Assembly (NCBI GenBank): GCA_039961715.1
Contig: JABRVW010000060.1
Location: 22,949 to 86,948, forward strand
Direction: 5' to 3'
Length of the DNA: 64,000 bases
Origin: Ignavibacterium sp.
Lineage (GTDB): Bacteria > Bacteroidota > Ignavibacteria > UBA10030
Numbering within the stretch: the first letter of the stretch is position 1; each line of letters opens with the position of its first letter. The position numbers and the translations under genes were made by a program. Positions 32,222 through 61,778 of the stretch are shown here, piece after piece. The notes under the pieces were generated by a model. It did no database searches. It worked only from the letters and a program-made list of their open reading frames with translations, and had not been told where the DNA came from.

Positions 32222-32223
32222 GA

Positions 32224-35664: not shown

Positions 35665-35718
35665 GAGCCCCCTACTATTTCATGAGTGTTGGTGTTGTGC
35701 CGTTGTTTTTGTAGCGGA

Positions 35719-38208: not shown

Positions 38209-38256
38209 CGGAGGTATCCGGTACGATGTCAGGAGGTACGGAGAACAAACGAGATA

Positions 38257-40047
38257 TCACTCCCACGCTGTGCCCAGCCAGGATTCATAGATCTGCTTCT
38301 GTAAAGCCGTCGGTTTGTCAGACCGTTTGACCTGGTAAGAGGGGACTGTACTCGGCGTAAGGGTGACGTCAAATTCGCGCAGGCGGTCATCGCGTATGAC
38401 CGTTATGCGCACGCGATCACCGTTCTTCTTGGAAGCAATTCGGTCCGGAATGTCGCCAGAACGAGCCCTGTACCCGTCCAGAGCAACGATCTCATCGCCG
38501 ACATTGAGGCCGGCGAGATAGGCAGGCGACCCGGCAACAACCGTACGGATGATGGTCCGCCCATCTTCATCTCGTGTAGAAGCGCCCAACCAGGGTGTTG
38601 CTCTTTGTTCGGAAGTGACGACGAGGCCGGCGTAGGAAAGCGCCTTTTCCCATTCAAGTGATTTTGTCCCATAGACGTGATCATCAAAAAATTGCTCGAA
38701 GCTTCCTCCGCCAAATTCCTCGCAAAGTTTTCTGAAGTCCTCGACCGTGTAACCGCTTCCGTTCCAGGGAAATCTCCTGTAGAGGGCGCGCATAACATCA
38801 TCAAGCGACCGCTTGTTCCCGGAACGCTGACGGATCTCCAGGTCCAGGATGAGACTGACGTCTGCTCCGCGGTCGTAGTAGTCAGATTCCGCATTGTAGG
38901 CATTTTCGTTGGATTTCCAGTATTTGACCCACGCGTCGAAACTGGACTCTGTCACCGGCTGCACCCTGTTTCCCGGCCTCATGCGCTCGCTTTCGATTTC
39001 CCGCGGAAGCTGGTCGATGATCTCCCGAGCCGTGATGTACCCCGTCCGCGCGAGCAACAGTCGTCCGTAGTAAGATGTTGTCCCTTCGGCAACCCACAGC
39101 TCCCGCGTATAGTTTTCCCGCGACCAGTCGTACGGGCTGATCCCTGCAGGCCGGATTTGTTTTACATTCCAGGTGTGAAAGTACTCGTGATTGACCAGGC
39201 CAAGAAAACCCCGATACGACCCCGGATTGGTAAGGGCAAACGGTCGGCCGCCCATGATCGTGGAGTTGATGTGCTCAGTACCGCCGCCTCCCCTCGCCGA
39301 AAGGTGGAGCATGAAGATGTAACGCTCATACGGCAGATCTCCCCAGAATTCCCGATTGGCCTTGATGATTCGCTTGAGGTCTTCCAGGATGGCCTTGACA
39401 TCGTACTCGCCCTTTCCGAGCACGCTGAATACGTGCTTCTTTCCTTCTGCTTCGAATTCGTAATCCTTCTGATCCCCCACGAAGAGGGGGCAATCCACCA
39501 AATAGTCATAGCTTGGGGCCCGGAAGGTGTTCGGGGTTCCAGCAGCACGGTCGAGGCCCGTTGTGACATGCCAATTGCCGTACGGAACGACAGTCAGCGT
39601 CACAGGGCGCTGGCGGTGGTTTGACGAATACATGAACACTGCCGCGCCGTCAAGAAATGCCCCCTCATCGTTCAACCCCTTTGTCCGTAAATGAAACTCG
39701 TTGGCGTACACCCGATACCGCGCAACCACTTTGGCCGAGCTTCCTTTTTCAATGCGCCAGGTGTCCTTGTCGGTCTTAATCCATTTCAAAAGCTTCCCCC
39801 CACCGTCGACAGCAGAAAAATCCTGCACAGCCCCCGCAAAGTCGAGGATGATATATCTTCCGGTTCGCCAGGCCGGGAGAGAAAGCTCGAACGACGATTC
39901 CGCTGCAGGAAGACCGTCAAAAGTAACCTCGACTTCGAACAAATGGGTCCAGGGCTCCGGCATGGAAAGCCGGTAAGCGATGGAAGGAGATTGTGCAATG
40001 GCCATGGTTGTCCAGAGACCGGTGATGAGAAGAAGAGATTGTTTCAT
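38257..40047 (-). CDS. M61 glycyl-aminopeptidase family protein with C-terminal PDZ domain
   Basis: Signal peptide. HEYFH (HExxH) zinc motif. C-terminal PDZ-like segment GSPAYLAGLNVGDEIVALDG. Confidence 0.75.
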   Translation of the reverse strand: MKQSLLLITGLWTTMAIAQSPSIAYRLSMPEPWTHLFEVEVTFDGLPAAESSFELSLPAWRTGRYIILDFAGAVQDFSAVDGGGKLLKWIKTDKDTWRIEKGSSAKVVARYRVYANEFHLRTKGLNDEGAFLDGAAVFMYSSNHRQRPVTLTVVPYGNWHVTTGLDRAAGTPNTFRAPSYDYLVDCPLFVGDQKDYEFEAEGKKHVFSVLGKGEYDVKAILEDLKRIIKANREFWGDLPYERYIFMLHLSARGGGGTEHINSTIMGGRPFALTNPGSYRGFLGLVNHEYFHTWNVKQIRPAGISPYDWSRENYTRELWVAEGTTSYYGRLLLARTGYITAREIIDQLPREIESERMRPGNRVQPVTESSFDAWVKYWKSNENAYNAESDYYDRGADVSLILDLEIRQRSGNKRSLDDVMRALYRRFPWNGSGYTVEDFRKLCEEFGGGSFEQFFDDHVYGTKSLEWEKALSYAGLVVTSEQRATPWLGASTRDEDGRTIIRTVVAGSPAYLAGLNVGDEIVALDGYRARSGDIPDRIASKKNGDRVRITVIRDDRLREFDVTLTPSTVPSYQVKRSDKPTALQKQIYESWLGTAWE

Positions 40048-40137
40048 GATCTGGTGCGCGATTGGTGGGTGGATGCCCGTCGTTTGTCTGGCATGATAAC
40101 GATATTGAATCTTCCATTCAAGGAGGGATTGTCGAAA

Positions 40138-41022
40138 TCACCGTTCGGTCCCCAGCATGATCAGGCCCCGGAGGAATCTGAACCCTACCACGGGATCATC
40201 CGATCGGATTGAAAGGGTCTTGGCGTCAAGCCGTGTCACGCCTGGAATGACCGAGGCCTGGTCTGCCTGCGAGCTTCGGAAGAACGTGAGCTCGAAGGTG
40301 TAAGGAGCGGGAAGAGTGTATGGTTTGATCGATTTCCTCTGGAGCACCGCCTTCTTCACTTCCTGCCTGATGAGTTCGTGGGCCTTCTTCAGTGGGAGTG
40401 TCCTGGCGGCACGCTTTCCGATGCCTTCTTTGACCGCCACAGTGATAACAGCATCGCCAAGAATCCTTCTTGCCTGTTCGCAGACAGCCTTGTCGCCGGA
40501 AACAAAAACCGCAGGGACGTTGTATCGTCCTGCAAGAAGCGCGTTGAGACCCAGCTCCGGCATTTCCACGCCGTTGACCTTTACCGAGGCCACCGTTCCA
40601 CCCGAAATCGTGTGGTCCAGCACTCCGTCCGTGGTGCCCTCTGCAGGGTGGTAGCCGATGAACACCGCCGCATCATAGGTGTCGTCGATTCCCTGCATCA
40701 TGCTGAGCGGCTTGGGGGATCCCGTAATGAGCGTTGCCGAAGGATGCAGGTCGGCAAGAATCAGGTTACGCATGCTTCCGTGGGAGTCGTTGACCACCAC
40801 TTCGGTGGCTCCGGCATCGAGCGCGCCCTGAACGGCCGCATTCGCTTCTTCTGTCATCCACCGTCTTGCCATTCCGTAATCCTTTCCATCACTCCCAACC
40901 TGATCCCCGTGCACGAGGCCTGTAATCCCTTCCATATCCACGGAAATGAATACCTTCAGCGATTGGGCGGACGCACCCGTGATGAGAAAGAGAAGAGAGA
41001 AGAGCAAACCGATTGTTTTCAT
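40138..41022 (-). CDS. M55 D-aminopeptidase DppA family
   Basis: Start at MKTIGLLFSLLFLITGASAQ (ATG 41022; the upstream 70-codon extension is rejected). DppA signature ISVDMEGITGL. Confidence 0.7.
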   Translation of the reverse strand: MKTIGLLFSLLFLITGASAQSLKVFISVDMEGITGLVHGDQVGSDGKDYGMARRWMTEEANAAVQGALDAGATEVVVNDSHGSMRNLILADLHPSATLITGSPKPLSMMQGIDDTYDAAVFIGYHPAEGTTDGVLDHTISGGTVASVKVNGVEMPELGLNALLAGRYNVPAVFVSGDKAVCEQARRILGDAVITVAVKEGIGKRAARTLPLKKAHELIRQEVKKAVLQRKSIKPYTLPAPYTFELTFFRSSQADQASVIPGVTRLDAKTLSIRSDDPVVGFRFLRGLIMLGTER

Positions 41023-41038
41023 AGCATCTCCTTGTGAA

Positions 41039-42061
41039 TTACGTCTGAAGAAAATTGAGTTGCCAGAGGTCGCGGCTGCTTGTTCTGAGAAACGGATGAA
41101 GAGCGAGCCGTCCCGTGGCTCCGATGCTTTGCTGTAAATACGCAAGCTCCTTGAATTTTGCCCGCACGTCGGCATCTTCGGCTGCAGGGGGGGTGAATCC
41201 CGCTTCACGCAGGAGAAGCATCCCCTTTGCACGGATGGAGAGTTCGAGGTAGATCTGAAGGTAGCAAATCATGTCGGCGATGATCTCACCGCGAAATCGG
41301 TCCTGGAGGGTCTTCAGGTACGTCCCTACGCGCGTCTGTGTCAGGTTCCCTGACGTGATCATTTCAAGCAGTTGGACGTCAGTATCAAATCCCACGCCGA
41401 GCCATTCCCTTGTCGAACGCTCGCTGGCTTGAAATACTGCTGCGAGGAGGAGGGGCAATCCTGCAATGATGGTCAGCGGTGAAAAGAGCGGGTGGAACAG
41501 AAAGTGGTTGTAGTAGGAGTGAATGAGTACGGCAAGAAGAAGCCCTTTCCACAGGACAAGAGGGGATTCCGTGGACCGTTCTTCGGCCTCCCGCTTTGCC
41601 ACGATGGCTACGATGGCGGTCGCGCCGCCGTGCATCACCGCCGTCCCAAAGCCGCGGACAATCCAGAGAAACATGTCGTCCGCCACGGAGGTCGTCAGAT
41701 AGTAAAGATTCTCGATGAACGCAAAGCCGGCCCCGACGGCAAATCCATAGATTGCCGCATCAACCATGAACCCGATGCGCTGTTTCCGGAGCAGGTAAAC
41801 GATGAACAGCGCCTTGAGAATTTCTTCGTTGACGGGGGCACCATAGCGCGTGAAGGTTACAAAGGGCAGGCCGATCAGCCCCTGAGTCCACGAATTGATG
41901 AAGTAGGACGCTCCCGCGGCTGCGCAGCCAAAGAGGATCGCCCCCGAAACGCCGCGTGCCCTCACAAGCTTGTAACTGTCGAGGAAAATCAGGGCGACGA
42001 GGAACAGGAACACCGGAGCCAGGCTGATGACGATGGCCGGTACTGCAGAGAGGTCGATCAT
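41039..42061 (-). CDS. PrsW family intramembrane protease
   Basis: Polytopic membrane protein with PrsW motifs NEEILKALF (EE), GFAFIENLYY, AVMHGGATA (H). Confidence 0.6.
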   Translation of the reverse strand: MIDLSAVPAIVISLAPVFLFLVALIFLDSYKLVRARGVSGAILFGCAAAGASYFINSWTQGLIGLPFVTFTRYGAPVNEEILKALFIVYLLRKQRIGFMVDAAIYGFAVGAGFAFIENLYYLTTSVADDMFLWIVRGFGTAVMHGGATAIVAIVAKREAEERSTESPLVLWKGLLLAVLIHSYYNHFLFHPLFSPLTIIAGLPLLLAAVFQASERSTREWLGVGFDTDVQLLEMITSGNLTQTRVGTYLKTLQDRFRGEIIADMICYLQIYLELSIRAKGMLLLREAGFTPPAAEDADVRAKFKELAYLQQSIGATGRLALHPFLRTSSRDLWQLNFLQT

Positions 42062-45015
42062 TGCAGAATCTTAAGGGACACCATGAATTCGTCCGACGAT
42101 CGCTGATTCTTCTCTGCGGCCCTCGCATAGCCCAGAGAGAAGGTTGATTCAAAGGACGAGAAGAGCACGAGTCGAACATCGAGTTGTGCGCCCGCGCTGA
42201 TTGCTGTGCCGCGCGAAATCTTGTCTACATTCGTCCCGATGGCCGCGGTGAACAGGGACAGGCGCATCCAGTTGGAATAGAGAGTCTGGAATCCCAGGTG
42301 ACGGAATCGTATGGGCGGAAGGTTCCATTCCAGCATGCCCTTCAAATAATTGATGCCGCCAATCTGGTTGATGGCGAGCCCGGGAAAACTTTGGTCCTCC
42401 CGGTACCGCCAGATCTCTCCCACGTCCACCCAGTTGTTTCCAAAACCCCCGAAATAGAAATTGGCGAACGGATTGTCGCGCCGGCCGAACGAAATGCCTC
42501 CGGCTGTCCTCAGCCACAGGGACGAATGGTCGATGGGTAACAGGAAGCCGTAGCCGAGATTCGTGCTCATGCGCGGATAAGCTTCCCCCAGCACCATGTT
42601 CGCATGGGTGGCTGCGCGCCACTCCAGGCCCTTCTCATGCTCCACGGCTCCCAGAGACTTCGAAAGGTTCTGATAGTTGATGCGGGCATCGAAGGACCAG
42701 AACCGGTCAAACGAAGCGACAATGTTCTGAAACTCCGGCAAACGCTCCAGTCCCCAGTATCCGCCAACGGTGAACCGGTAATCCATCGTTTCCGGCTCGT
42801 CAAAGATTGCGTAATCCTTGTACTGGAGCGAAAGGGAATATCCTTTCCGGCTTGTCTTCGTCGGCCCAAACAGGTCGTAGAAGTCCGCTCCGTTCATTGC
42901 GGCCGTCAGCTTCCATTCCCAAAGCCTGTAGTTGAGAACGGCATGAATGCGCTCGTTGGATGGAAGCACTGTGTTGGGAGTGTAGGAAGCCGTCAGGTCG
43001 ATCATATGCGAGTAGATGGGATCCGCAAAGCTGAAACGCATCCCGTACGCTGCAAAGTTCTTGTATCCCTCAACCACGGGGTAGGCGGACACGAGCGAGA
43101 TGTGCGTCTTGTACTCCCCGCGGTAGGCGACAAGCGAATCAAGGTTCACGTTTGCCGCTGAGGGACGGCGCACGTGCCATGATCGCACCACGGGATGACG
43201 TTTTGCGATCTCGTTCCCCAGGTAACGGATTGCGCCCACGTTCTCTACGGGTGTGGTGCCGATCATCACGGGCACAAATCCCTGCCCTGTATACAGAAAG
43301 GCGAGGATAGAATCGGGAGACACCGGAGTTGGGCGGAAGAGGCCGGTTTCGCAATTCGTCAACCAGTGCATCTCCTTTGTCTCAAAATCGTACCGGACAA
43401 TGTTCGATACCCCGCTGTAGTACGACGATCCGAACAGATGCTTCCCGTCGGGTGAGAACACAAAGTTCGCAGGGGTGCTGATGTCGAAATCGTACAGAAT
43501 GTCATAGGACGTCTTCCCTGCAAGAAGATCGGCAATGTTCATCGCGATAAGCTTCTGCGTACCGTCCAGTTCCGCTAACGCGGCCGTCAGCATCGTTCCA
43601 TCCGGCGAAATGTCGAGATCAAAAATGTCCTTCCCATACGGCCACGCAGAGACCAGATTCCATTCCGTATACGGCGCGGGGATTCTCACGAGGGAGGAGA
43701 TCCCATTGTAGTGCCGGACGCCCCAGAGGCTCCGATCGGAGGGATTGAACACGAAGTCCCCGGTACGGCAGTCCTTCAGGAGCATCGTTGTCTGGCCTGT
43801 TTTGAGATCATAGGCGTTCAGGTCCCGCCACTTATTGTTATCGGTCGAGAAGAACAAAGTTTCTGTTGAAGGATCGTGGGCGAGGGAGGTGACGTAAAAC
43901 AGAGTGCCTCCGCGAACGTCATGCAGTCTGCGCTTTGTTCCCGTGGCGAGGTCGATTGCGGCAAGGTGTGCGACCTGGCCCGGATAATTCACCGCGGCGT
44001 AAAGAACGTTTCGCTCCCTGTCCACAAACGGCCTCGAGACAGATCCCAGGAGCGTCCGCGTGATTTTCCGGTACGGAGTGACCGGATTCATCCTGATCAG
44101 ATCGAGGTTCTCGCGTTGCCACTCACGCTCCCATGCGATCCAACGGGCCCACTCCTCGTCAAGCGGAGTTCCGAACACCTGCCTGAACCGCGCCGCGAAA
44201 TGATTCTTGCTCTCGCGATCGTGGTTGTTCCATGCCACGACCTTCTCCGGTCCGTACTGGAGAGCCAGATAGCTCATGAAGCGGGTGCCGTACAGATAGG
44301 AATTTGCCCCGACCTGGAAATCGGCCTTGGTCCCTTCTGCCTCCAGCCCCACGATGTCATAGAAGTGCGCGCTGTCTCTGACCATGGTACGGAACATCAT
44401 TTCGTCATAGGCGCCGAGGGCGCGGCCCAGTCCCCCGTTCATCCAGGTCTCCATGAACACCGCCTGCCCCTCGAAAAACCAGCTCGGCGCGTAGAGACGC
44501 GGGCTGGTAAGATACCCGTAGAGAAGCGAGAGAGGCGCTTCGGGAATCGGCGCAATCTTCCCCCCGAAGAGCGATCGAAAGAATTTCGCGGTCGATGAAG
44601 GCTTGTCCATGGTGACGATATGGGCAAGTTCGTGATTCATCATCCAGCTCATCCGCTCCACTGCCGGCATGGTTTCGTAGGAATAGTGAAACGGCGAGAT
44701 TCCCACGCTGATAAGATTTCTCGGTACTCCGGTGGCCCCTCCGTTTCCGAAATCGCCAAAATCCTGGATCAGCACCGTCACAGGTTCCGAAGGTGTGTAG
44801 TCGAAGAGCCGGGAATGGAAATCGAGGGCAACCTCAAAGCAGCGGGCCACGTGAGGGACAAGGTATTCATGTCCTTTGGAGAAATACACAAGTCGAAGAT
44901 GCTCGGTCTCCAGGGCGGACAGCTGGGCGTGCACGTGACCCGCCGAAAGCCCGTGGAACAATCCGGCCAGGAGGAGTGATCGTGCGGACAGGGGCATGCG
45001 TCCTTCGCTGATCAA
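42058..45015 (-). CDS. Large secreted HExxH zinc metalloprotease-like protein with beta-propeller-type repeats
   Basis: Signal peptide. N-terminal HELAH motif. Central region with repeated WD/TolB-like blades. 985 aa. ATGA overlap with the downstream PrsW gene. Confidence 0.5.
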   Translation of the reverse strand: MISEGRMPLSARSLLLAGLFHGLSAGHVHAQLSALETEHLRLVYFSKGHEYLVPHVARCFEVALDFHSRLFDYTPSEPVTVLIQDFGDFGNGGATGVPRNLISVGISPFHYSYETMPAVERMSWMMNHELAHIVTMDKPSSTAKFFRSLFGGKIAPIPEAPLSLLYGYLTSPRLYAPSWFFEGQAVFMETWMNGGLGRALGAYDEMMFRTMVRDSAHFYDIVGLEAEGTKADFQVGANSYLYGTRFMSYLALQYGPEKVVAWNNHDRESKNHFAARFRQVFGTPLDEEWARWIAWEREWQRENLDLIRMNPVTPYRKITRTLLGSVSRPFVDRERNVLYAAVNYPGQVAHLAAIDLATGTKRRLHDVRGGTLFYVTSLAHDPSTETLFFSTDNNKWRDLNAYDLKTGQTTMLLKDCRTGDFVFNPSDRSLWGVRHYNGISSLVRIPAPYTEWNLVSAWPYGKDIFDLDISPDGTMLTAALAELDGTQKLIAMNIADLLAGKTSYDILYDFDISTPANFVFSPDGKHLFGSSYYSGVSNIVRYDFETKEMHWLTNCETGLFRPTPVSPDSILAFLYTGQGFVPVMIGTTPVENVGAIRYLGNEIAKRHPVVRSWHVRRPSAANVNLDSLVAYRGEYKTHISLVSAYPVVEGYKNFAAYGMRFSFADPIYSHMIDLTASYTPNTVLPSNERIHAVLNYRLWEWKLTAAMNGADFYDLFGPTKTSRKGYSLSLQYKDYAIFDEPETMDYRFTVGGYWGLERLPEFQNIVASFDRFWSFDARINYQNLSKSLGAVEHEKGLEWRAATHANMVLGEAYPRMSTNLGYGFLLPIDHSSLWLRTAGGISFGRRDNPFANFYFGGFGNNWVDVGEIWRYREDQSFPGLAINQIGGINYLKGMLEWNLPPIRFRHLGFQTLYSNWMRLSLFTAAIGTNVDKISRGTAISAGAQLDVRLVLFSSFESTFSLGYARAAEKNQRSSDEFMVSLKILQ

Positions 45016-45085
45016 AAAATGAGAGGGGTGATGGCGTTGTAGTCGCTAAGAATCGGAGATAATATGGAGAAAGGCAAGCCGGAAG

Positions 45086-45121
45086 GAAAAAAGAAGAGGG
45101 AATGACCTCGCGGCCATTCCC
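45086..45121 (-). terminator. Intrinsic terminator (minus strand) after the repeat-protein gene
   Basis: 7-bp stem gggaatg / cattccc with a 10-nt loop. The plus-strand A/G-rich run immediately 5' of it gives a U-rich tract on the minus-strand transcript. Confidence 0.45.
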
Positions 45122-45144
45122 TCGAAACAACCAGCAAACAGTGG

Positions 45145-46452
45145 TCAGTCCAGACGATGAACGCCCTTGACCAGCTCTGCGAATCGCGCGCTCTTCAGGA
45201 GCTCGGCGAAACGGGCATCTTTCATGAGGCCCGCGAACCTGGCATCCTTGGCGAGCTGGGCGAACCGTGCATCCTTCATGAGCTCGGCAAAACGGGCATC
45301 TTTCATCAGCTCGGCAAAGCGTGCGTCTTTCATAAGTCCCGCGAAACGGGCGTCCTTTGCCAATTCCGCAAACCGTGCATCTTTCATCAGCGCGGCAAAT
45401 CGCGCGTCCTTGGCGAGCTCGGCGAACCGTGCATCCTTCATAAGCTCGGCAAAGCGGGCGTCCTTCGCCAGTTCCGCGAACCGGGCGCTCTTCAGGAGTT
45501 CTGCAAACCGTGAATCCTTGGCAAGCTCAGCAAACCTGGCATCTTTGGCCAGCGCAGCGAAGCGAGCGTTGTTTGCCAGTTCCGCAAAGCGGGCATCTTT
45601 CATCAGCTCCGCGAATCTGGCGTCCTTCATGAGTTCCGCAAAGCGGGCGCTTTTCACAAGCTCTGCAAAGCGGGCATCCTTCGCCAGCTCGGCGAACCGG
45701 GCATCTTTTGCCAGTTCGGCAAACCGCGCATCCTTTGCCAGTTCGGCAAAGCGGGCGTCCTTCGCCAGTTCCGCGAACCGTGCATCCTTCAGAAGCTCGG
45801 CAAACCGCGCATCTTTTGCCAGCTCTGCGAATCGCGCATCCTTGGCCAGTTCGGCAAACCGCGCATTGTTCGCCAGTTCCGCAAACCGCGCATCCTGCAT
45901 AAGCTCGGCGAAGCGCGCATCCTTCATCAGCTCGGCAAACCGGGCGTCTTTCATAAGTTCCGCAAAGCGGGCGCCCTGAAGCAATTCGGCAAACCGCGCA
46001 TCCTTCGCCAGCTCTGCGAACCGTGCATCCTTCGCCAGCTCGGCGAACCGTGCATCTTTTGCCAGTTCGGCAAACCGCGCATCCTGCATGAGCTCGGCAA
46101 AGTATGCGCCTTGCATCAATTCGGCAAACCGCGCATCCTTCGCCAGTTCGACGAACCGGGCATCCTGCATCAGCGCCTGGAAGTTCGGGTCGCCGATCAG
46201 CTTCTGAACCTGGTCGCTCTGCAACAGCAGTTGAAACTCGGGATCCTCAAGATTGACATCCTCGGCTGTCATTTGCTCGGCGCGGTACTTCTCAGCCTTC
46301 TGGATCCCGCCAATCGTTCCCGCCGCATCGTCTGAGCTGACGGGCGGATAGAAGAACGCAAAATAGATGATTGCCAGTGCGGCGACGACAACTCCGCCGG
46401 CGGCAAACAATCTCTTGCGGCTTCCCGCTGATCCTGTGGAACTCGGTGCCAT
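45145..46452 (-). CDS. Membrane-anchored tandem nonapeptide-repeat protein (about 40 x [K/Q]-D-A-R-F-A-E-L-[A/M/L])
   Basis: N-terminal single TM (RKRLFAAGGVVVAALAIIYFAFFY) with positive-inside residues. About 40 consecutive 9-aa repeats. Perfect SD (AAGGAGGA) 5 nt upstream of ATG. 17-nt gap after the anti-sigma gene. Own terminator downstream. Confidence 0.75.
   Translation of the reverse strand: MAPSSTGSAGSRKRLFAAGGVVVAALAIIYFAFFYPPVSSDDAAGTIGGIQKAEKYRAEQMTAEDVNLEDPEFQLLLQSDQVQKLIGDPNFQALMQDARFVELAKDARFAELMQGAYFAELMQDARFAELAKDARFAELAKDARFAELAKDARFAELLQGARFAELMKDARFAELMKDARFAELMQDARFAELANNARFAELAKDARFAELAKDARFAELLKDARFAELAKDARFAELAKDARFAELAKDARFAELAKDARFAELVKSARFAELMKDARFAELMKDARFAELANNARFAALAKDARFAELAKDSRFAELLKSARFAELAKDARFAELMKDARFAELAKDARFAALMKDARFAELAKDARFAGLMKDARFAELMKDARFAELMKDARFAQLAKDARFAGLMKDARFAELLKSARFAELVKGVHRLD
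45166..46248 (-). repeat. Coding tandem repeat, 27-bp period, about 40 copies, degenerate at synonymous positions
   Basis: Protein-level period of 9 residues, with 3 degenerate N-terminal copies then about 37 near-identical copies. The DNA copies differ mainly at third codon positions. Confidence 0.85.
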
Positions 46453-46469
46453 GACTCCTCCTTGTGGGT

Positions 46470-47225
46470 TTAGTGTGATTGATCCGTTTGACGTTCGGAA
46501 TCAAAAACCAGTCGTTGCTCGAACTGCGTCGTTCCATCGAGAAGAATCTGTACAGCGAGTGTCGGAGTCTGTTGATCGGAGGCAAAGCTGAGGGTGGTGT
46601 TCACGTCATTCCTGACGGCCAGGCGCACCTGACCGGGGGAAACTTCAAGTGTGGAGGGCTGATCGGCCGCATAGCGCACAAACCTGGCGTCGGTTGGGGA
46701 ATAAAGAACACGCACGGTGAATTCACGGCCGCTCTGAAAAGAACCATGGACCTGAATTGTCCCGTCGACCACCTGGCCCCTGATCGAACCGCTGACCTCG
46801 GGGAGTTCGATCCGGGCGGAGGCTTTTGCGGATTGTCCGATCGTGCCCGCGAGCCCGGCGGAATCCGAGGGAGCTCCGGAGAAGGCAAGAAAAAGGGCGA
46901 TCCCCGCCACAACGCCGCCGGCAAAGGTAGAGGCAGTGCGGAAAACCGGAATCCGGACAAAATCGGAGAGACGATCCCAAAGGGAGGACGAGGCCGCGGA
47001 AGGCCGCGGAAGCGAATTGAGAATTCTGAGCTTGAGGGAACGTGGAGGATCAACTTTGGGAACGTTCTTGAGCGTTGCCGAAAGCTTCTTCAACTCGGCG
47101 TACAGCTCACGCGCTTCTTTGTTCCGTTCAAGAGTCTCCCGCACGCGTTCACTGTCACGCGGAGAGTTTGCTCCATCGATTTCCTGATTCACGAGATCGT
47201 ACGTTCGCTTGTCAAGCATTGGCAA
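46470..47225 (-). CDS. Membrane anti-sigma factor (single TM, cytoplasmic N-domain)
   Basis: Start overlaps the ECF sigma gene end. N-terminal 70 aa charged/helical, typical of anti-sigma domains. Single TM FAGGVVAGIALFLAF. Periplasmic C-domain. Confidence 0.6.
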   Translation of the reverse strand: MPMLDKRTYDLVNQEIDGANSPRDSERVRETLERNKEARELYAELKKLSATLKNVPKVDPPRSLKLRILNSLPRPSAASSSLWDRLSDFVRIPVFRTASTFAGGVVAGIALFLAFSGAPSDSAGLAGTIGQSAKASARIELPEVSGSIRGQVVDGTIQVHGSFQSGREFTVRVLYSPTDARFVRYAADQPSTLEVSPGQVRLAVRNDVNTTLSFASDQQTPTLAVQILLDGTTQFEQRLVFDSERQTDQSH

Positions 47226-47754
47226 TTCCCTTTTTCATCAACACTCGTCTGAGAACGCGTCTGGCGGAAAAAAGGCGTGACTTGACGGTATTCTCGCGAA
47301 GATCGAGAATGTAGGCAATCTCACGGTAGGAAAGGTCCTGAAAGTGATTCAAGATCACGAGGATGCGATAGTCGGGCTTCAATTCCAGCAGAGCATTGTT
47401 GATGGCGAGTGTCATTTCGGGATCGCCGGCCGTTTCTTCTTCTCTCTGCTTCGAATGAAGTGTTTCGTCGAACCGGTCGAAATCCCGTTTGCGATTCAGG
47501 AAGTTGATGGATTCGTTCACGGCGATCTTATAAAGCCAGCTGAAGAACTTGTACTTCGGATCGAACGTGCTCAGCTTCTCGAATGCCTTGACGAACACCG
47601 TCTGCGTGATATCCTCGGCGTCTTCCGTGTCCGTTGTGAAGCGGAAGGCCAGATTGAACACCGGTTTCTGGTACCGGTCAACAAGCTCCTCAAAGGCTTT
47701 CTGGTTCCCGTCCAGGCATTGGCGAACGAGAAGGGAATCCTCTTCCTGTCTCAT
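47212..47754 (-). CDS. ECF (group IV) RNA polymerase sigma factor
   Basis: Region 2 (FEELVDRYQKPVFNLAFRF...DITQTVFVKAF) and region 4 (LSYREIAYILDLRENTVKSRL). Start taken at MRQEEDS (ATG 47754); a 35-codon upstream extension is possible. Confidence 0.8.
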   Translation of the reverse strand: MRQEEDSLLVRQCLDGNQKAFEELVDRYQKPVFNLAFRFTTDTEDAEDITQTVFVKAFEKLSTFDPKYKFFSWLYKIAVNESINFLNRKRDFDRFDETLHSKQREEETAGDPEMTLAINNALLELKPDYRILVILNHFQDLSYREIAYILDLRENTVKSRLFSARRVLRRVLMKKGIANA

Positions 47755-47876
47755 ACCTACAAGCGATCTCTGGAAAAGTTGGCGTGTGCAGGGGGAGAAA
47801 GGTACTCCCTTTTGAGGGAGAGTTGCAACCAAAACCGGAAAAACGGCCAAAAAACGCAAAAACCGGGGGGTGGGAT

Positions 47877-48161
47877 TTACTCGATCTCAAAAATCATGTC
47901 AAATCGAGCAAAATGAAAGACATCCCTGATATGCTTGTTCATATTGATTAATTTCAGCTTCTTGCCCGACTGGCTCAGGCGCTTCTGGGTTGCCAGCAGA
48001 ACTCCCAGCCCGGCGCTGGAGATATACTGAAGCTCCTTGAAGTCCACCCTGGCGGAATCGTTGATCCTGCCCAATACTTCCGATGCTTTATCCGTTTGGG
48101 CGGCATCCAACCTCCCGCTCAAGACTACATCACCCTGATCGGTTATTCTGATATCAAACAT
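47877..48161 (-). CDS. STAS-domain anti-sigma-factor antagonist (RsbV/SpoIIAA-like)
   Basis: 94 aa. Phosphorylatable Ser motif ELQYISSAGLGVLL. Confidence 0.8.
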   Translation of the reverse strand: MFDIRITDQGDVVLSGRLDAAQTDKASEVLGRINDSARVDFKELQYISSAGLGVLLATQKRLSQSGKKLKLINMNKHIRDVFHFARFDMIFEIE

Positions 48162-48164
48162 TGC

Positions 48165-48566
48165 TTACTCCAGCGGCAGGTGAAACGAAATGATGCTCGT
48201 TCTATCCTGATGCTCATACTGAAGATTCTCGACAAGTTTCTGGACGAGGTAGATTCCCAGGCCGCCCGGCTTCCGTTCTTCCAGCGACCGTTTCAGATCG
48301 ACGCTCCTCTGCTTGCTGACGTCAAACGGATCGGAATCCGGATCGGTGATCCTGACCAGCACTTCCTTTCCGTCAGAAGCCAGATGCATGTGAATATCGC
48401 CTTTTCCGGACTGGTTGTACTTCACCATGTTTGTAAAGAGCTCTTCAACGGCAAGGTCAAGCACGTATCTTACCTTCTCGCTGACTGCATGAATCCGCGT
48501 GAACTCGTTTGTGAACTCAAACACGCTTTGAAGCTGTGCGAACGTGCGTTTGAAGGACCGGTCCAC
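48165..48566 (-). CDS. Anti-sigma regulatory factor / Ser-protein kinase (RsbW/SpoIIAB-like, HATPase_c)
   Basis: 133 aa. N-box EELFTNMVKYN. Placed 3 nt upstream of the STAS gene. Confidence 0.7.
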   Translation of the reverse strand: MDRSFKRTFAQLQSVFEFTNEFTRIHAVSEKVRYVLDLAVEELFTNMVKYNQSGKGDIHMHLASDGKEVLVRITDPDSDPFDVSKQRSVDLKRSLEERKPGGLGIYLVQKLVENLQYEHQDRTSIISFHLPLE

Positions 48567-49913: not shown

Positions 49914-50852
49914 CTAAGAGTCAAGGAACGGAAGAGTCTCCTGTTCCCCGATGTCGAGGAAGAGGATCCTTTCCGTGATGCCGGCGGTATCCGCCAGGGC
50001 GAGAAGCTGTTCAATCGCATACGTGGGCGAAGGATCGAATCCCTGGACAAGGGTTCTGTGATGCATCGGAAGCATCAGCCTGGCGCCGAGGTCCTGAAAG
50101 ACCTGCAACGCCTGTGCGGGATCGACATGATAGCGCTCCATGAAGTCCCGCGGTTCGATGGGTCCGATGGGCAGAATGGCGAGATCGATGCGAAAGCGGC
50201 GTCCGATCTCTTTGAATAACTCAGGATGGTACCCCGTGTCGCCGCCAAAAAACACCGTGATTCCTCTGTACTCGATGACCCATCCCGTGTATCCGCGGTC
50301 GCGCATCCAGAGCATGTCGAATCCGTACCTGCCGCTGAAGTGCTGAACGGGAACGGCCGTAATGCGAACGCCCTGATGTTCGATTGTTTCCCAGGGTCGC
50401 ATTTCCCTCATTTCTTCAAAACCCAATTCCGGCGTATAGGGAAGGGATCCGAGCGGAAGGAGAAGCTTCCCGTGCTTGGGAATTCTGTCCAGGCTGCCGA
50501 AGCTGAAGTGATCAAAGTGGATGTGGGATATGAGCGTGAAATCGACCTGTGAGAGGCGGGACGGGTCAAGGCCTGGGGCGATCGTCCGTTTCATCACCAT
50601 GCCGACGGTGTTCGTGAACAACGGATCAGTGAGAAACACTTTGTCGTGAATGTGAACCAGGACTGTGGCATGACCCGACCAGAGAACGGAGAACTTCCCC
50701 TCCGATGCATGAATTGTCTGCTCATGGACCGGCGCAGGTTCGATGGGCCTGCCGATCTGTTCCACGGACTTCATGAGGAACCTGCTCACCATGGAGCTGC
50801 AGCCTCCGAAGATCACAATGGTCGCGAGAGAAGCAAAGATTGGCCGAATCAT
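49914..50852 (-). CDS. MBL-fold metallo-hydrolase lipoprotein (COG2220/NAPE-PLD-like), paralog 1
   Basis: Start at MIRPIFASLATIVIFGGCSS (ATG 50852; the 136-codon extension is rejected). HIHFDH = HxHxDH motif. N-terminal WSGHATVLV pattern. Confidence 0.7.
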   Translation of the reverse strand: MIRPIFASLATIVIFGGCSSMVSRFLMKSVEQIGRPIEPAPVHEQTIHASEGKFSVLWSGHATVLVHIHDKVFLTDPLFTNTVGMVMKRTIAPGLDPSRLSQVDFTLISHIHFDHFSFGSLDRIPKHGKLLLPLGSLPYTPELGFEEMREMRPWETIEHQGVRITAVPVQHFSGRYGFDMLWMRDRGYTGWVIEYRGITVFFGGDTGYHPELFKEIGRRFRIDLAILPIGPIEPRDFMERYHVDPAQALQVFQDLGARLMLPMHHRTLVQGFDPSPTYAIEQLLALADTAGITERILFLDIGEQETLPFLDS

Positions 50853-51808
50853 GGGGTGACGGGCGGACGCGAAGAGGGGATTATGACCTGTTGCTCCCCG
50901 ACGTCGAGATCGACGATACGGTCGGAGAGGCCCATTTCGGCGGCAAGAGCCCGGAGCGTGATGATGGATTGAGCGGGATCCTGCTCGAAACCGTAAAAGA
51001 GGGTTTTGTGGTGAACCGGAAGCATGTAGTCTGCGCGGACATCCTGAAAAATCATCAATGCTCCGCGTGGGTGCACATGAATCCGCGACCCCACTTCCCA
51101 GGAACCGCCGGGACCGATCGGGATGACAGCAAGGTCGATCGTGAAGCGTCGACCGATCTCCTTGAAGTGCTCGGAGTGGTATCCTGTGTCCCCTGCGAAA
51201 AAGATCGTGAGGTCCTTGTATTGAACCACGTACCCCGTAAAGCCGTGATCCCGCATCCATGCGCCGTCGAAGCCGTATCGCCCGCTGAAATGCTGGACTG
51301 GAACTGCGGTAATGGTCAGACCGGAATCTTCAATCGATTCCCAGGGGGAGAGCTCATAGACTGCGCGGAAACCGAATTCAGGCGTGTAACGAAGGGCGCC
51401 GAGGGGGATTGCCAGGATGCCATTTCGGGGAAGCTGTTCGATGCTTCCGTAGCTGAAATGGTCAAAATGCGTGTGCGAAATCAGCGTTGCGTCGAGCTTG
51501 GGGAGGATGGCTGGATCGATACCCGGGGCGATGTAGCGTTTAACCACGATGCCCACGGTGCCTGTGAACAACGGATCGGTCATGACCAGCTTGTCGTACA
51601 TCTGGATGAGCGCCGTTGCATGGCCCACCCAGGCGACGGCAAGATCTGCCGACGGCTGGATGGGTTGGGTAATCATCGACGGAGCGGGCGCGATGGGTTC
51701 GTTGATGCGGCTCATGGAACGCGTGAACATCCGCGCGGCCCAGGTACTGCAGCCGGCCAGAAGGAGGGCAAGGCCGAGAGATGCCAGGGAGAGAAGCCGG
51801 CGCCTCAT
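50849..51808 (-). CDS. MBL-fold metallo-hydrolase lipoprotein, paralog 2
   Basis: Lipoprotein signal LLLAGCS. HTHFDH motif. Collinear similarity to paralog 1. ATGA overlap with paralog 1. Start at 51808 (or 51841). Confidence 0.7.
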   Translation of the reverse strand: MRRRLLSLASLGLALLLAGCSTWAARMFTRSMSRINEPIAPAPSMITQPIQPSADLAVAWVGHATALIQMYDKLVMTDPLFTGTVGIVVKRYIAPGIDPAILPKLDATLISHTHFDHFSYGSIEQLPRNGILAIPLGALRYTPEFGFRAVYELSPWESIEDSGLTITAVPVQHFSGRYGFDGAWMRDHGFTGYVVQYKDLTIFFAGDTGYHSEHFKEIGRRFTIDLAVIPIGPGGSWEVGSRIHVHPRGALMIFQDVRADYMLPVHHKTLFYGFEQDPAQSIITLRALAAEMGLSDRIVDLDVGEQQVIIPSSRPPVTP

Positions 51809-52344
51809 CAAAACACCCTGAATTCCAGTGATCCGATCCATGCGGTGGGGTTGTCGGCATGCTTGAGGTTAAGATGGAGCATGCCGAAGAGCGTGGAGAT
51901 GCCGGCAATTTTGAACACGCATGTGGTTCCGGCGACGCGGTGTGCTCCCACCCCCAGGTTCAGCGTCAAATGCTCGCCGCGTTCGGACAGCGGAATGAAT
52001 CCCATGATTCTGGCATACGAGCCGAAATACGACGAGCCGAGCTTGGATGTATAGATCTGTCCTGCAACGCTCAGCTCAACGGATCCCGTGAAACGGGCGG
52101 TCGGTTCGACGATGAAGGTGTACCAGGGGGAGACGTACCGGTTGATGCCGAAGGAGTACAGGAGCGGCGTGACTTCCCACTCGAATCCAAAGTTGGAGGT
52201 GTGGGCATCGTTATAGAGCGTAAGCGTGGGGAGGAACTGAAGCGGAAGCCAGACGGAGAATTTGTCGGCGTTTTCCTGGGACAATTGCGCGTGTGCTCTG
52301 GGAACCACACACACCAGAGCAATGACGAGAAGAGTTGTTTTCAT
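51808..52344 (-). CDS. Small outer-membrane beta-barrel protein (OmpW/PagL-size)
   Basis: Signal peptide MKTTLLVIALVCVVPRAHAQ. About 8 amphipathic beta-strands. C-terminal ...LEFRVF. Stop overlaps the paralog-2 start. Confidence 0.45.
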   Translation of the reverse strand: MKTTLLVIALVCVVPRAHAQLSQENADKFSVWLPLQFLPTLTLYNDAHTSNFGFEWEVTPLLYSFGINRYVSPWYTFIVEPTARFTGSVELSVAGQIYTSKLGSSYFGSYARIMGFIPLSERGEHLTLNLGVGAHRVAGTTCVFKIAGISTLFGMLHLNLKHADNPTAWIGSLEFRVF

Positions 52345-52783: not shown

Positions 52784-55700
52784 TTAGGAAGCCGAGAGGC
52801 GGTCGAGCATCAATCGGACCACCCGGGCTTTTTGATGCGAATCATCGGCTTCGCTCCATGCTTCGGCGGCTTGTTTCAGGTGATACAAAGCTTGCTCGTT
52901 GCGGCCAATTGTTGCGTACCGAAGGCCCATCTCCGCGTGGAGGCCCGGCCATAGTTCTGTGATCCAAAAACCATTGGATCTCAACGAAATGAACACACCA
53001 GTGACCACCTCCCCCCGGTGACGAAGGATCGATTGTGAAACGGCGGCCCACGACGAATCGGAGACCCGGAAGAACCCCTCTGCAATCCTTGCCTGTGCGA
53101 GAAAATACAGTGGATCCCCTGCATGAATCTTCCGGATAGAATGGAACTTCTGAAGGGCATCTTCGACCAGTCCCCGCTCCAGATCAAGCTCGGCGAGGAT
53201 AAAATTCCTGAAGTCGTCCTTGCGTTTCAGAAAGTAAGGGTCTATGCTGTTGAGGCGGTTGAAGCGACGCACGATGCCAGCGGCCTTTTCCACAAATCCT
53301 TTGCGTGCAAAGCTGCTTCCGACAAACAAGTACTCCAGGAACGGGGAAGTGGAAAGCCCAAGGGCCTGCTCCATGAGTCGGTGATAGTCGGGAACGTCAC
53401 CAAAGTCAAACGAAAGCTCGCCGAGCAAATAGAGAAACCACGTTTCCTCTTTGGTTCTCTTCAATGTATGGCTAAGCCACAACCCCTCCTGACAATAACG
53501 CCTGGCCTCCGAGAAGCGTCCTCGGAAGTGACAGAATGAAGCAAGATTGAGCAACGCCTGAAGCCGGGTGGCATCATCCCCCACATTCAAAACGTGTCGA
53601 AGAATCACCTCGGATGAGTCAAAACGTTCAGCACACCACCAGGCGCGGGCTCTATAAATATCAATCGTATGATAGGAGGGCCGCAGGGCTTTGCTCTTTG
53701 CGTAGTAATCAAGTGCTTGATGGGGATCTCCGGCAAGGGAAAGCGCAAATCCCATGTTGTTGAAGACCGGGCCGGCATATACGGAATCCAACGAGAGGTA
53801 CTGCTTGCCCGTTTCGACTGACCGGACAAAATCGCCGGCGAACATTGCAAGGTGCGCCAGTGTTGGAAGGCCTTCCGGGCTGTTGGGGTAACGGACGACG
53901 AGATTTTGGAGACTCTCGTAAGCTTTTTGAAAATCAAGTTCAAAACTCGGCCCATAGTATACTGAAAGGATGTAAAACTTCTCCCGATCGGTTACACGGT
54001 GGATCAACGGGAGAACGCGGCGATGAAATTCAAGAGCCAGACTGTCGTTTCCCAGTTTGCGATGAATGTAGGAGAGATCGCTGACAGCCATGGTGAACAG
54101 CGAATCCAGCTCCACCGCCCGTCCCTTCAGGATGGCGGCTTCTTGGTATTTTCCCTGCCGCTCCAGCACGTCTCCGCGTGAGTACAACTCAAGTGCTTCC
54201 AGAGACCTCGTGGTGACTTCCACAAGGGGCAACGTTGTGCGAGAGATTTCCGACAGGGACTCTCCAAGCGATTCCCGAATATCCTCAGCGAGGCGGTCGA
54301 CGCCCGAAAGAATGTTTTCGAGTGATGCGACTTCCTGCCTGTGGAGAGCCACAGCTTCTCCGGAACCCGCATCGATGATCTTTCCGGTAAGGACGTATGT
54401 TGATCCCAGGCGACCGATCGATGCGGACAACACCACCCGCGCTCCTACCCGGCGTGCCAGCGACACCCCGGTCGATTCGCCGACAAAGACGTCAGGAGAG
54501 AGATCCATGAGGGGGAGGGTTGTGTACAGGCGTTCCGCCGGGAGGATGTTGAAATGAGACGACTGGCGCAGTGAAACGCGTATGGCCTCCTTGATCGAAG
54601 AATCAAACCGGCTGTCGCCGGTCTCATTCACAATATCGGTGATAAGGACGTAGTCCCGGGGAGAAATGTCTACGGACGGAGTCCTTGTCACCATGAACCA
54701 GATTGTGCCCATGCCCAGGAAGAGGAGAGTGCCGGAGAGGAGAGTCCTTGTCGACGGTCGACGTTGCATCGTGGGGCTCTTCACGTCCCCGAGCGACGGG
54801 GTCTGAAGGCTTCTCAGGACCTCATCCATGGATCGAGGCCGAAGCAAAGGATCCTTTTGCAGACAACGCGTGCAGAGATGCGCGAGTTCATGGGGGATGT
54901 TGGAACGGAGATTTTTGGGCGAAGGGGGATCCTCCTGGGTGATGGCGTATATCATGGCAGGGGCATGCTCGCCGCGAAATGGGAGCTGGCCGGTCAGCAT
55001 TTGAAAAAGAACCACGCCCAGTGACCAGAGGTCGCTCCGTTCGTCCGTGCCCTGTCCGTTCAGCTGCTCGGGGGCCATATAGGCGATACTTCCCAAAACG
55101 GTTCCGCGTTCGGAGACAGTAGAAAGACTGGCAATCTTTGCCACGCCGAAATCGAGGATCTTCACAACGCCATCGCTTGTCACGATGACGTTTGCCGGCT
55201 TGATGTCGCGATGGAGGATTCCATGAAGGTGGGCCGCGCGGATGCCTTGGGCAATTTGGATCACGATAGCCCTGGCCCGTTCGGGAGGAAGAGGCCCCTC
55301 CTCAAGGATGTCCTGAAGTGTTCTCCCTTCCACATATTCCATTGCGATGAAACTGCGAGTTTCCTTTGTCAGAGGATCTTCGGCTGATCCCAGCTCAAAA
55401 ATTCCCGCAATGTTGGGATGGGTCAGGCGTGCCGCCGCCTGGGCTTCGCGCGAAAAACGGACCTGTTCCTCGTGGGAGACATTTTTGTCGAGCGGCAGGA
55501 ACTTCAGGGCGACTGGCCTGTGGAGGGACGTATCTTCGGCCTTATATACAACCCCCATTCCGCCCTCCCCCAGCTTCTCAAGAATGTTGTAATGAGATAT
55601 GGTTCGGCCGATCAAGGCACACCCCGTGTCGTGACACCATGATGACGGCGTGAATCGGAACGCTGTGAGAACCCGGAGAGAATTGTCTCCCAGGATTCCC

Positions 55701-61593: not shown

Positions 61594-61778
61594 AGAGGGT
61601 TCTCCTGAGATGGGTAATGCGGTGGGATCAAAGTAGGGAGAAGAAGGGGAGGATGCAACTGCGAAACAACGGTGGATGAGACAAGACAACAATCCACCGT
61701 AAAGACGGGACGATGTCCCATCTCAGGAATGCAACCCGTAAAGACGGGTTACGGCACCCTCAAGAGCAGCCCCGCCTC

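Follow-up and report, generated by a model that had tools for sequence, protein, structure and literature searches.

Switches built from an extracytoplasmic function (ECF) sigma factor and its anti-sigma factor are the main envelope-stress sensors of bacteria, and to our knowledge it is not known for most groups what their periplasmic domains sense. In the sigmaW-RsiW-PrsW system of Bacillus subtilis, PrsW is the site-1 protease of RsiW, and we know of studies of PrsW-type site-1 proteolysis essentially in Firmicutes only. Here we describe a locus of this known kind, ECF/anti-sigma/PrsW signalling, in a 64,000-nucleotide stretch of DNA from Ignavibacterium sp. (the window; assembly GCA_039961715.1, contig JABRVW010000060.1, positions 22,949 to 86,948 of the forward strand), and in particular a gene (45145..46452(-)) for a 435-residue membrane-anchored protein made up largely of tandem nonapeptides, hereafter the repeat protein. 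Our best explanation, which we hold with about even confidence, is that an ECF sigma/anti-sigma switch run by PrsW-type regulated proteolysis has in the repeat protein its extracytoplasmic arm, which would act in sensing or shielding.

The B. subtilis system and the Ignavibacterium locus both pair an ECF sigma factor with a single-pass anti-sigma factor encoded by a gene that runs into the sigma stop codon, and both have a PrsW-family protease encoded in the cluster and a promoter (predicted for the locus) of autoregulatory type with an AAC-containing -35 element, a (C/T)GTA -10 element and 16-nt spacing. They differ in that the sigma factor described here scores below the SigW cutoff, that its hosts are diderm bacteria of the FCB group and Acidobacteriota, and that sigmaW has neither the repeat protein nor the partner protein of ~980 residues and the RsbW/STAS pair, all of which are present here. 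FecA-FecR-FecI combines an outer-membrane barrel protein, a single-pass protein that extends from the inner membrane through the periplasm, and an ECF sigma factor with proteolytic release. It may be likened to the locus by analogy only, as there is no TonB-dependent transducer and no FecR domain here and the protease (PrsW) is another one. Bulky periplasmic domains are known to block site-2 cleavage of anti-sigma factors, and Myxococcus DdvA (TPR-CHAT), likewise a single-pass anti-sigma factor, carries a bulky periplasmic repeat domain that blocks this cleavage until it is removed (PMC11506125). DdvA has 34-residue TPR hairpins and a CHAT protease, whereas the repeat protein has nine-residue units of probably one helix each and no enzymatic domain, and is a separate polypeptide.

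The repeat gene and its sigma operon

The open reading frame (ORF) list, the JGI gene calls and the pattern of selection agree that 45145..46452(-) is a real gene under strong constraint. The original prediction, made from the DNA letters, had described about 40 uninterrupted nonapeptide repeats, and we indeed count 40 nine-residue units in perfect register at aa 70-429 without any indel: three lead-in units (aa 70-96; DPEFQLLLQ, SDQVQKLIG and DPNFQALMQ) followed by 37 core units DARFAEL[A/M/L]K (aa 97-429, 45166..46164(-)), which Tandem Repeats Finder reports as 45165..46174 with a period of 27, 37.4 copies, 70% matches, 0% indels and a score of 562. The array core is free of Pro, Cys, Trp and His and has a net charge of +5. 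The 37 DNA copies share a mean nucleotide identity of 72% and a mean amino-acid identity of 81%; two thirds of the 5096 pairwise base differences (3393) fall at codon position 3, the codon differences divide into 2795 synonymous and 1124 non-synonymous ones, and only one 27-mer is present twice. Third-position entropy reaches 0.9-1.7 bits (near saturation), and first and second positions are mostly invariant. Plus-strand ORFs within the array (118, 270 and 64 aa; 45157..45979, e.g. 45167..45979) are mirror artefacts of the 27-bp repeat and not genes, and plus-strand terminator-like matches in the array were dismissed as mirror products of the same kind.

We compared the gene with that of the closest relative, 'Bacteroidia bacterium HBSIN02' (locus L001; DNA identity 87.6% over 10 kb), whose orthologue is also 1308 nt long, without indel and with the same number of repeats. 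Base differences between the two genes number 170, of which 145 are third-position changes, and the two proteins differ at 16 residues. In-register identity is 87% versus ~75% out of register, indicating that individual units are positionally orthologous and the array is stable. The ratio of non-synonymous to synonymous divergence (dN/dS, by the Nei-Gojobori method) is 0.016 in the repeat region, the lowest in the cluster, compared to 0.217 for the anti-sigma factor, 0.089 for the sigma factor and 0.05 for the ~980-residue protein. This ratio and the codon-position pattern show that the frame is coding and that the peptide is under strong selection, as had been claimed on the grounds that the copies differ mainly at synonymous positions. 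The array is thus a natural case of peptide uniformity under selection with diversity at the DNA level, its copy number being the same in related species. The synonymous divergence itself is raised in the repeat region (dS 1.07 for window 45166..46164 versus L001:5256-6254; 0.34 for the N-terminus of the same gene and 0.38-0.51 for neighbouring genes), possibly through intragenic conversion that shuffles synonymous variants or through selection for DNA-level diversity.

The N-terminus carries a predicted signal-anchor transmembrane helix (aa 15-35, 46348..46410(-)), recognized in the sequence as a ~21-residue hydrophobic stretch, modelled by AlphaFold as a helix at aa 18-34 and found also in relatives fused to an anti-sigma domain (see below). 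R12-K13-R14 precede this stretch, which argues for an N-in orientation with the repeats outside, in agreement with the fused relatives, where a cytoplasmic anti-sigma domain lies N-terminal to the same helix; the periplasmic placement of the repeats that had been proposed earlier is consistent with both. Between the helix and the core units lies a conserved juxtamembrane module (aa 36-96, 46165..46347(-)) of the form PP-x6-GTIGG-x-KAEKYRAEQ…DV-L-DPEFQLLLQ-D-VQKL, defined with the help of an alignment of family members.

The gene for the ECF sigma factor (180 aa, 47212..47754(-)) was placed within an ORF at 47212..47859(-) with a probable ATG at 47754. Its product matches Sigma70_r2 (4.7e-17) and Sigma70_r4_2 (2.3e-13) in Pfam and the NCBIfam sigma70-ECF model TIGR02937 (110 bits, cutoff 42.9), and thus has regions 2 and 4 only, as is characteristic of ECF (group 4) factors; its score against the SigY model of NCBIfam is under the cutoff. 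The next gene (46470..47219(-), in an ORF at 46470..47225(-)) encodes a putative single-pass anti-sigma factor of 249 residues with a transmembrane helix at ~aa 95-118; its ATG at 47219 overlaps the sigma stop codon by 8 nt (ATGCTTGA) and its own TAA stop lies at 46472..46470. NCBIfam anti-sigma models match it weakly (26 bits, cutoff 100), and residues 1-90 contain neither Cys nor His and hence no H-x3-C-x2-C signature of the ZAS class. Its assignment as an anti-sigma factor is suggested by gene position, the single transmembrane helix and the homology of its N-terminal domain to the N-termini of the fused proteins.

A gap of 17 nt separates the anti-sigma stop from the ATG of the repeat gene (46452), with a Shine-Dalgarno sequence AAGGAGG (46457..46463(-)) 4 nt 5' of that ATG, and an intrinsic terminator (12-bp stem and T tract, 45096..45123(-)) directly 3' of the repeat gene closes the sigma operon. 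The boundaries of these genes match the JGI gene calls for the source contig (metagenome 3300028461, 94.7 kb), in which the sigma factor also has 180 residues; the same proteins are deposited at NCBI from an 'Ignavibacterium sp.' MAG. The immediate upstream arrangement of sigma and single-transmembrane anti-sigma genes, with its gap and ribosome binding site, was therefore read correctly at the outset, and co-transcription of the three genes is supported by the overlap, the short gap with its Shine-Dalgarno sequence and the position of the only terminator after the repeat gene.

An ECF-type promoter motif, CCAACTTT-N13-TGTA (47758..47782(-)), ends 3 nt before the sigma ATG; its promoter function is predicted. 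AAC…(T/C)GTA with 16-nt spacing is the layout of ECF promoters such as that of sigmaW. Across the related loci introduced below, the motif (with N12 or N13) lies directly upstream of the sigma gene in 40, in most cases ending 3 nt short of the start codon; in 21 loci in which the two genes lie further apart, it stands 13-87 nt ahead of the repeat gene. Only 7 other occurrences were found, mostly at the same two positions with mis-called starts; a second match in the window, at 37589, falls within a peptidase gene and probably arose by chance. Judging from the location and layout of the motif, the sigma operon and the repeat gene are most likely targets of the sigma factor itself. A motif only ~3 nt from the ATG points to an mRNA with little or no leader, or to unusual spacing of the -10 element and the start site.

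A conserved cluster and anti-sigma fusions

We compared 80 genomic loci that had been recovered by a genome scan using the 12 closest sequences. All are metagenome-assembled genomes and many are truncated; they come from Ignavibacteria/Bacteroidota, Calditrichia, KSB1, Gemmatimonadota, Cloacimonadota, Marinimicrobia, Thermoanaerobaculia and other Acidobacteriota, and Aminicenantes. Gene content was determined with phmmer, using the window proteins against all ORFs of the 80 loci, and the resulting synteny frequencies apply to loci chosen for having the repeat gene. The conserved order is RsbW-like kinase, STAS protein, ECF sigma factor, anti-sigma factor, repeat protein, ~980-residue protein and PrsW. 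The original prediction thus had the three-gene operon right but took it for the complete unit, which it is not: the larger cluster adds the ~980-residue protein and PrsW downstream and the RsbW/STAS pair upstream. In the window the latter two genes encode an RsbW-like serine kinase/anti-sigma factor (48165..48566(-); Pfam HATPase_c_2, 7.7e-19; 50 of the 80 loci) and a STAS-domain protein of the anti-anti-sigma type (47877..48161(-); Pfam STAS_2, 1.8e-11; 59 loci).

Among the same 80 loci the ~980-residue gene was detected in 68, and in every one of them it directly follows the repeat gene; of the remaining 12 loci, 11 break off within ~0.4 kb, and in L075 the 0.97 kb that follow gave no match. 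The sigma gene is present in 62 loci and the anti-sigma gene in 56, which bears on the proposed check for co-occurrence of the repeat gene with ECF/anti-sigma pairs across genomes. Three further loci, from a different sub-branch and reached by a different search route, have a sigma gene upstream and the ~980-residue gene downstream in all three cases and PrsW in two. PrsW itself was found in 54 of the 80 loci, and is encoded with the sigma/anti-sigma pair, as would be expected of PrsW-dependent proteolysis. The window copy (340 aa, 41039..42061(-)) matches Pfam PrsW-protease at 1.4e-22 (80.6 bits) and is named 'PrsW family intramembrane metalloprotease' by NCBI and 'RsiW-degrading membrane proteinase PrsW' by IMG.

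A clue to wiring comes from gene fusions. An anti-sigma domain, the transmembrane helix, the juxtamembrane module and the repeats are joined in one ORF in at least 14 loci (probably 18), and the two proteins are separate in 42; the fused architecture is also found in many database proteins. The family therefore has two architectures, the stand-alone form of the window and a long form with ~100-150 extra N-terminal residues that resemble the N-terminus of the window anti-sigma factor and match the same weak NCBIfam anti-sigma models. Moreover, 36 of the 42 stand-alone anti-sigma factors carry a G-[T/S]-[I/V/L/M] motif 9-16 residues after the transmembrane helix, compared to 3.8±1.8 (maximum 11) in 2000 shuffled controls. 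In the window, GTIG stands at aa 125-128 of the anti-sigma factor (46836..46847) and at aa 45 of the repeat protein, ~10 residues past its transmembrane helix. This shared motif could mark the place where a membrane-embedded factor such as PrsW recognizes or cuts both proteins. The fused loci and the membrane-proximal G-T-I motif lend support to the earlier suggestion that the anti-sigma factor has a partner or sensor in the repeat protein, and fusions, shared motif, shared promoter and the constant company of PrsW together make the repeat protein most likely the extracytoplasmic arm of the switch.

The proposed mechanism runs as follows. The repeat protein would be a bitopic protein of the inner membrane with a short cytoplasmic N-terminus and its remainder in the periplasm, where a probably extended juxtamembrane segment would be followed by a rod or solenoid of ~40 capped two-turn helices. 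This arm would be the C-terminal domain of the anti-sigma factor in some lineages and a separate protein of the same operon here. An intact, bulky array would protect the membrane-proximal GTIG segments of both the repeat protein and the anti-sigma factor, and an envelope signal would remove or displace it; the signal might come from the HExxH/propeller/barrel neighbour encoded next door, or from hydrophobic polypeptides binding to the amphipathic short helices. PrsW (site 1) and then an assumed site-2 protease would cut the anti-sigma factor, and the freed sigma factor would re-transcribe the sigma, anti-sigma and repeat genes from the CCAACTTT-N-TGTA promoter and so reset the switch.

We delimited the repeat family with an exhaustive HMMER search, which returned 1084 proteins at E<=1e-3; the N-terminal GTIG...KYR element is present by motif pattern in 63 of the best 150. 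Many top matches (P0001, P0006, P0008, P0012, P0016, P0077 and others) share only the 9-residue period and were rejected as relatives. True members have a module consisting of a transmembrane helix, (Y)PP, six residues, G-T-I-G, an optional GVxK insert, A-x-(K/R)-Y-(R/Q), x-x-Q, D-V-x-L and D-P-E-x-Q-x-L-L-Q-x-D-x-x-Q-K-L, then the repeat array. In an alignment of 33 members, the first row of which is a 95-residue stretch of the window repeat protein from aa 12, G34, D54 and Q67 in the numbering of that row (aa 45, 65 and 78 of the protein) are invariant and I36, A42, Y45 and F80 nearly so, the juxtamembrane module being the most conserved part of the family. The window protein has the family's defining features: an N-in anchor with a GTIG module, a homogeneous array of a 9-11-residue unit and the ~980-residue gene downstream. 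Three loci (L082, L083 and L084) have short family members on frameshift-ridden contigs where the sigma, ~980-residue and PrsW genes are fragmented, and these short lengths are therefore assembly artefacts.

The units are homogeneous within each lineage and differ between lineages (e.g. SDAFREALK, SPELQAALK, KPEVAAVLA, DAAFQELLK, NDAFQKVLQ, SKAYQELAA, NNAYRELMS and SPEFRAALA). Arrays with a period of 10 (LDNAQARAAL; L043, L046 and L050) or 11 (RNLDAKSVDAL and SKLEPAALQAV; L059 and L060) follow the same N-terminal module, so that the period is variable in the family. The common pattern is [S/N/D]-[P/A/D/E]-[A/E]-aromatic-[R/Q]-x-[A/L]-[L/M]-x. The units are charge-balanced, and ~84% of them, taken over the whole family, open with S, N or D as N-cap residue; in 8 of 73 complete proteins there is roughly one Pro in each unit. 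The region after the module spans 144-546 residues (median 265), or about 16-60 units.

Neither Pfam-A nor NCBIfam has a model for the repeat family, giving compositional or motif-level matches only, and we found no description of the family or the cluster in the literature; the text of the ECF reclassification paper mentions neither PrsW nor STAS nor Ignavibacteria. The family had initially been called unrecognized, and the annotated family of known function that could have overturned this did not come to light. Two scores above threshold were rejected: Plasmodium_HRP (PF05403; 94.5 bits, gathering threshold 45.8), as the 435 residues of the protein include a single His, which lies outside the repeats, and NCBIfam TPR_END_plus (NF047558; 55 bits, cutoff 32), as no single stretch passes and only profile positions 32-55 are covered; the Pfam scan of the repeat protein reported no TPR family. 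Such scores could make automatic pipelines mis-name the family. Where source names are given, family members and the window neighbours other than the sigma factor and PrsW are all called 'hypothetical protein', and this holds for the two core proteins, the repeat protein and the ~980-residue protein, wherever they are source-named. The family, the anti-sigma fusion, the ~980-residue partner, the RsbW/STAS association and the promoter motif are not found in curated libraries or the searchable literature. The seven-gene module is conserved across Ignavibacteria/Bacteroidota, Calditrichia, KSB1, Gemmatimonadota and Acidobacteriota, and the anti-sigma fusions offer a testable wiring diagram for it.

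The ~980-residue partner (big985, 42058..44997(-)) begins 147 nt downstream of the repeat gene. It has a signal-peptide-like N-terminus, a metallopeptidase-like N-terminal domain with an HExxH motif, a PD40 propeller and an Omp85-like C-terminal region, and its homologues in other phyla are 47-80% identical to the window protein. H128, E129, H132 and E182 (HExxH…E) are invariant in 30 sequences, on which the Pfam matches are all weak (PD40 in 18, Omp85_2 in 12 with a best E of 8.5e-5, Peptidase_MA_2 in 7). At least 5526 database homologues were found at E<=1e-20, none of them functionally named, and only 1 of 120 homologues listed has a precomputed Pfam match; sequence and profile searches of the PDB gave no solved relative. 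From these features the protein may be anchored in the outer membrane and act as a protease. In most related loci, too, the repeat gene ends at a comparable hairpin terminator, and this terminator indicates that the ~980-residue gene and prsW form a separate transcription unit. A different element, ~CTTGC(C/T/A)TTT-N7-8-AAGAATTGGCAT, unlike the sigma-type motif, precedes the ~980-residue gene (window 45040..45078(-)); CTTGC-type elements stand before this gene also in the Ignavibacteria-like loci L003, L004, L007, L008, L013, L016, L026, L034 and L035.

Alternative roles and the fold of the array

Several observations weigh against the repeat protein being primarily an arm of the sigma switch. 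The repeat gene is tied more constantly to the ~980-residue gene than to the sigma gene. In Thermoanaerobaculia (L022, L028 and L051) sigma and anti-sigma genes are absent, a divergent Trans_reg_C+TPR regulator (an OmpR/CadC-type winged helix plus TPR, e.g. L028:2428-4566(-)) lies upstream, and the RsbW/STAS pair is found downstream of the ~980-residue gene on the opposite strand; the loci of Cloacimonadota, Marinimicrobia and similar taxa also have no adjacent sigma gene. From these sigma-less loci and the closer tie to the ~980-residue gene it follows that the core function may not be sigma control. The wide variation in unit sequence, period (9, 10 or 11) and number would sit more easily with a physical role than with recognition of a specific ligand. 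The sigma factor is no SigW equivalog (NF007223, 116.2 bits versus 209; TIGR02948, 102.8 versus 243), and the structural models of the array reach moderate confidence only (pLDDT 70-88 in the repeats). Finally, BLASTP of the transmembrane and juxtamembrane stretches of the window anti-sigma factor against those of the repeat protein gave no significant alignment; our claim is therefore of a short motif that both have at a set distance from the membrane, and not of paralogy. A broader view, which we offer tentatively and consider rather doubtful, is that the cluster constitutes an unrecognized trans-envelope signalling and quality-control system of the FCB group and Acidobacteriota, in which RsbW/STAS would provide a second, cytoplasmic input and selection would hold the repeat peptides identical and their codons maximally different.

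The closer linkage to the ~980-residue gene and the sigma-less loci keep two other roles for the repeat protein alive. It is conceivable, if unlikely, that the protein is an effector and not a sensor, that is, a sigma-induced, membrane-anchored periplasmic holdase or adaptor whose stacked amphipathic two-turn helices would capture misfolded envelope proteins by their exposed hydrophobic segments and pass them on to the HExxH/PD40/Omp85-like protease, the two making up a pair for envelope quality control governed by the ECF factor. The protease-like gene invariably follows the repeat gene, the pair persists without sigma and anti-sigma genes, and in 21 loci a sigma-type promoter motif of its own stands before the repeat gene. 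The units also resemble the D-P-x-Phi-x-x-L-L-Q motif of STI1/DP domains (Hop/Sti1, Sgt2/SGTA and ubiquilins; PF17830), with DPEFQLLLQ and DPNFQALMQ of the lead-in matching the DP motif and the general pattern [D/S/N]-[P/A]-x-Phi-x-x-[L/A]-[L/M]-x of a capped short amphipathic helix being common to both. In STI1 domains, short amphipathic helices with helix-breaking prolines form a helical hand, which binds hydrophobic helices (PMC8010706). These domains are, however, single five- or six-helix hands that follow TPR domains in cytosolic eukaryotic co-chaperones (PMC8010706), whereas here 16-60 tandem units would lie in the periplasm. The Pfam model STI1-HOP_DP (PF17830; gathering threshold 29.1) scores 32.0 over the whole window protein, 39.6 over P0004 and 54.5 over P0005, yet no single stretch passes and the match to the window protein spans profile positions 4-30 only; we found no sequence or fold match to solved STI1 structures (five-/six-helix hand, PDB 2LLW). 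We therefore regard the likeness as a motif-level resemblance and not membership, with homology unproven. Two further points speak against an effector: a pure effector would not be expected to form part of the anti-sigma factor, as the array does in fused lineages, and the units are uniform within each protein yet differ between lineages, whereas client-binding grooves are usually conserved.

Slightly less likely again is a role as a tether, in which the array would be a rigid spacer between the inner membrane and a barrel-anchored ~980-residue protein, relaying an event at the outer membrane or cell surface to the anti-sigma factor, by analogy with FecA-FecR-FecI signalling or with TonB. The constant neighbour has an Omp85-like C-terminus and a signal peptide, the repeat protein appears in models as a membrane anchor with an elongated, repetitive architecture, the number of repeats is identical in the window and L001, and the anti-sigma fusion of some lineages would suit such a relay as well. 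Array lengths of 144-546 residues across the family are nevertheless awkward for a ruler, the outer-membrane location of the partner is drawn from weak Pfam matches (best E 8.5e-5, 12 of 30 members), and Pfam scans of the window proteins and the ~980-residue members revealed no TonB-dependent transducer and no FecR domain.

The fold predicted for the array bears on all these roles. We modelled the repeat protein with AlphaFold2 without an alignment and, for residues 1-170, with a 31-row alignment. Both runs gave 7-residue helices with 2-residue breaks at every K-D junction, at pLDDT 70-88 over the repeats without and 76-85 for residues 70-120 with the alignment. The array is possibly a new one-helix-per-repeat solenoid, which could be useful for protein design; PDB sequence searches with the repeat protein and the family profile gave no match, and no solved fold matches the model. 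The segment at aa 35-64 (GTIG…KYR…DV) stays below pLDDT 50 even with the alignment and has no regular structure in the models, as would befit a linear motif that takes up structure only on binding a partner.

The very long single amphipathic helix or fibre with which the original prediction had interpreted the array finds no support in these models. Window units are Ala-rich, lack Pro and could form i/i+3 charge pairs (R3-E6 and E6-K9), a make-up conducive to helix formation, and 18 residues in five turns equal 3.6 residues per turn. We consider a continuous helix, or a coiled-coil-like fibre with an 18-residue super-repeat, very improbable. Besides the break at every K-D junction in both runs, there are N-cap residues at the start of ~84% of units and homologues with a Pro in each unit (SPELQAALK, KPEVAAVLA and SPEFRAALA), successive F4/L7/A8 patches would by geometry point 180° apart, and periods of 10 and 11 beside 9 are hard to square with the constant hydrophobic stripe that a continuous helix would require. 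The autocorrelations at lags 7, 8, 10 and 11 are also close to zero in the closest orthologues, whose repeat unit is that of the window protein, and with a period of 9 the array does not have the signature of a coiled coil or single helix.

There is, lastly, next to no chance that the array is a non-coding or recently slipped tandem DNA repeat with an accidental ORF, for which nothing speaks beyond the existence of a 27-bp tandem array and which is ruled out by the codon-position-specific variation, the dN/dS of 0.016, the positional orthology without indel relative to L001, the Shine-Dalgarno sequence, the terminator and homologous proteins in many phyla.

Surroundings of the cluster

On the same strand, the cluster lies in peptidase-rich surroundings. 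The region at 28706..41232(-) encodes an M55 D-aminopeptidase, an M61 peptidase with a PDZ domain, an M1 peptidase with HEAT repeats and two ~1150-aa proteins, one of which has a weak outer-membrane beta-barrel match, and an S46 dipeptidyl-peptidase is encoded further upstream of the cluster (59443..61692(-)). Upstream of the RsbW/STAS pair, 49914..51841(-) and 52784..55864(-) hold two tandem paralogues of the MBL fold (Lactamase_B_2/3) and a TPR-containing Ser/Thr protein kinase.

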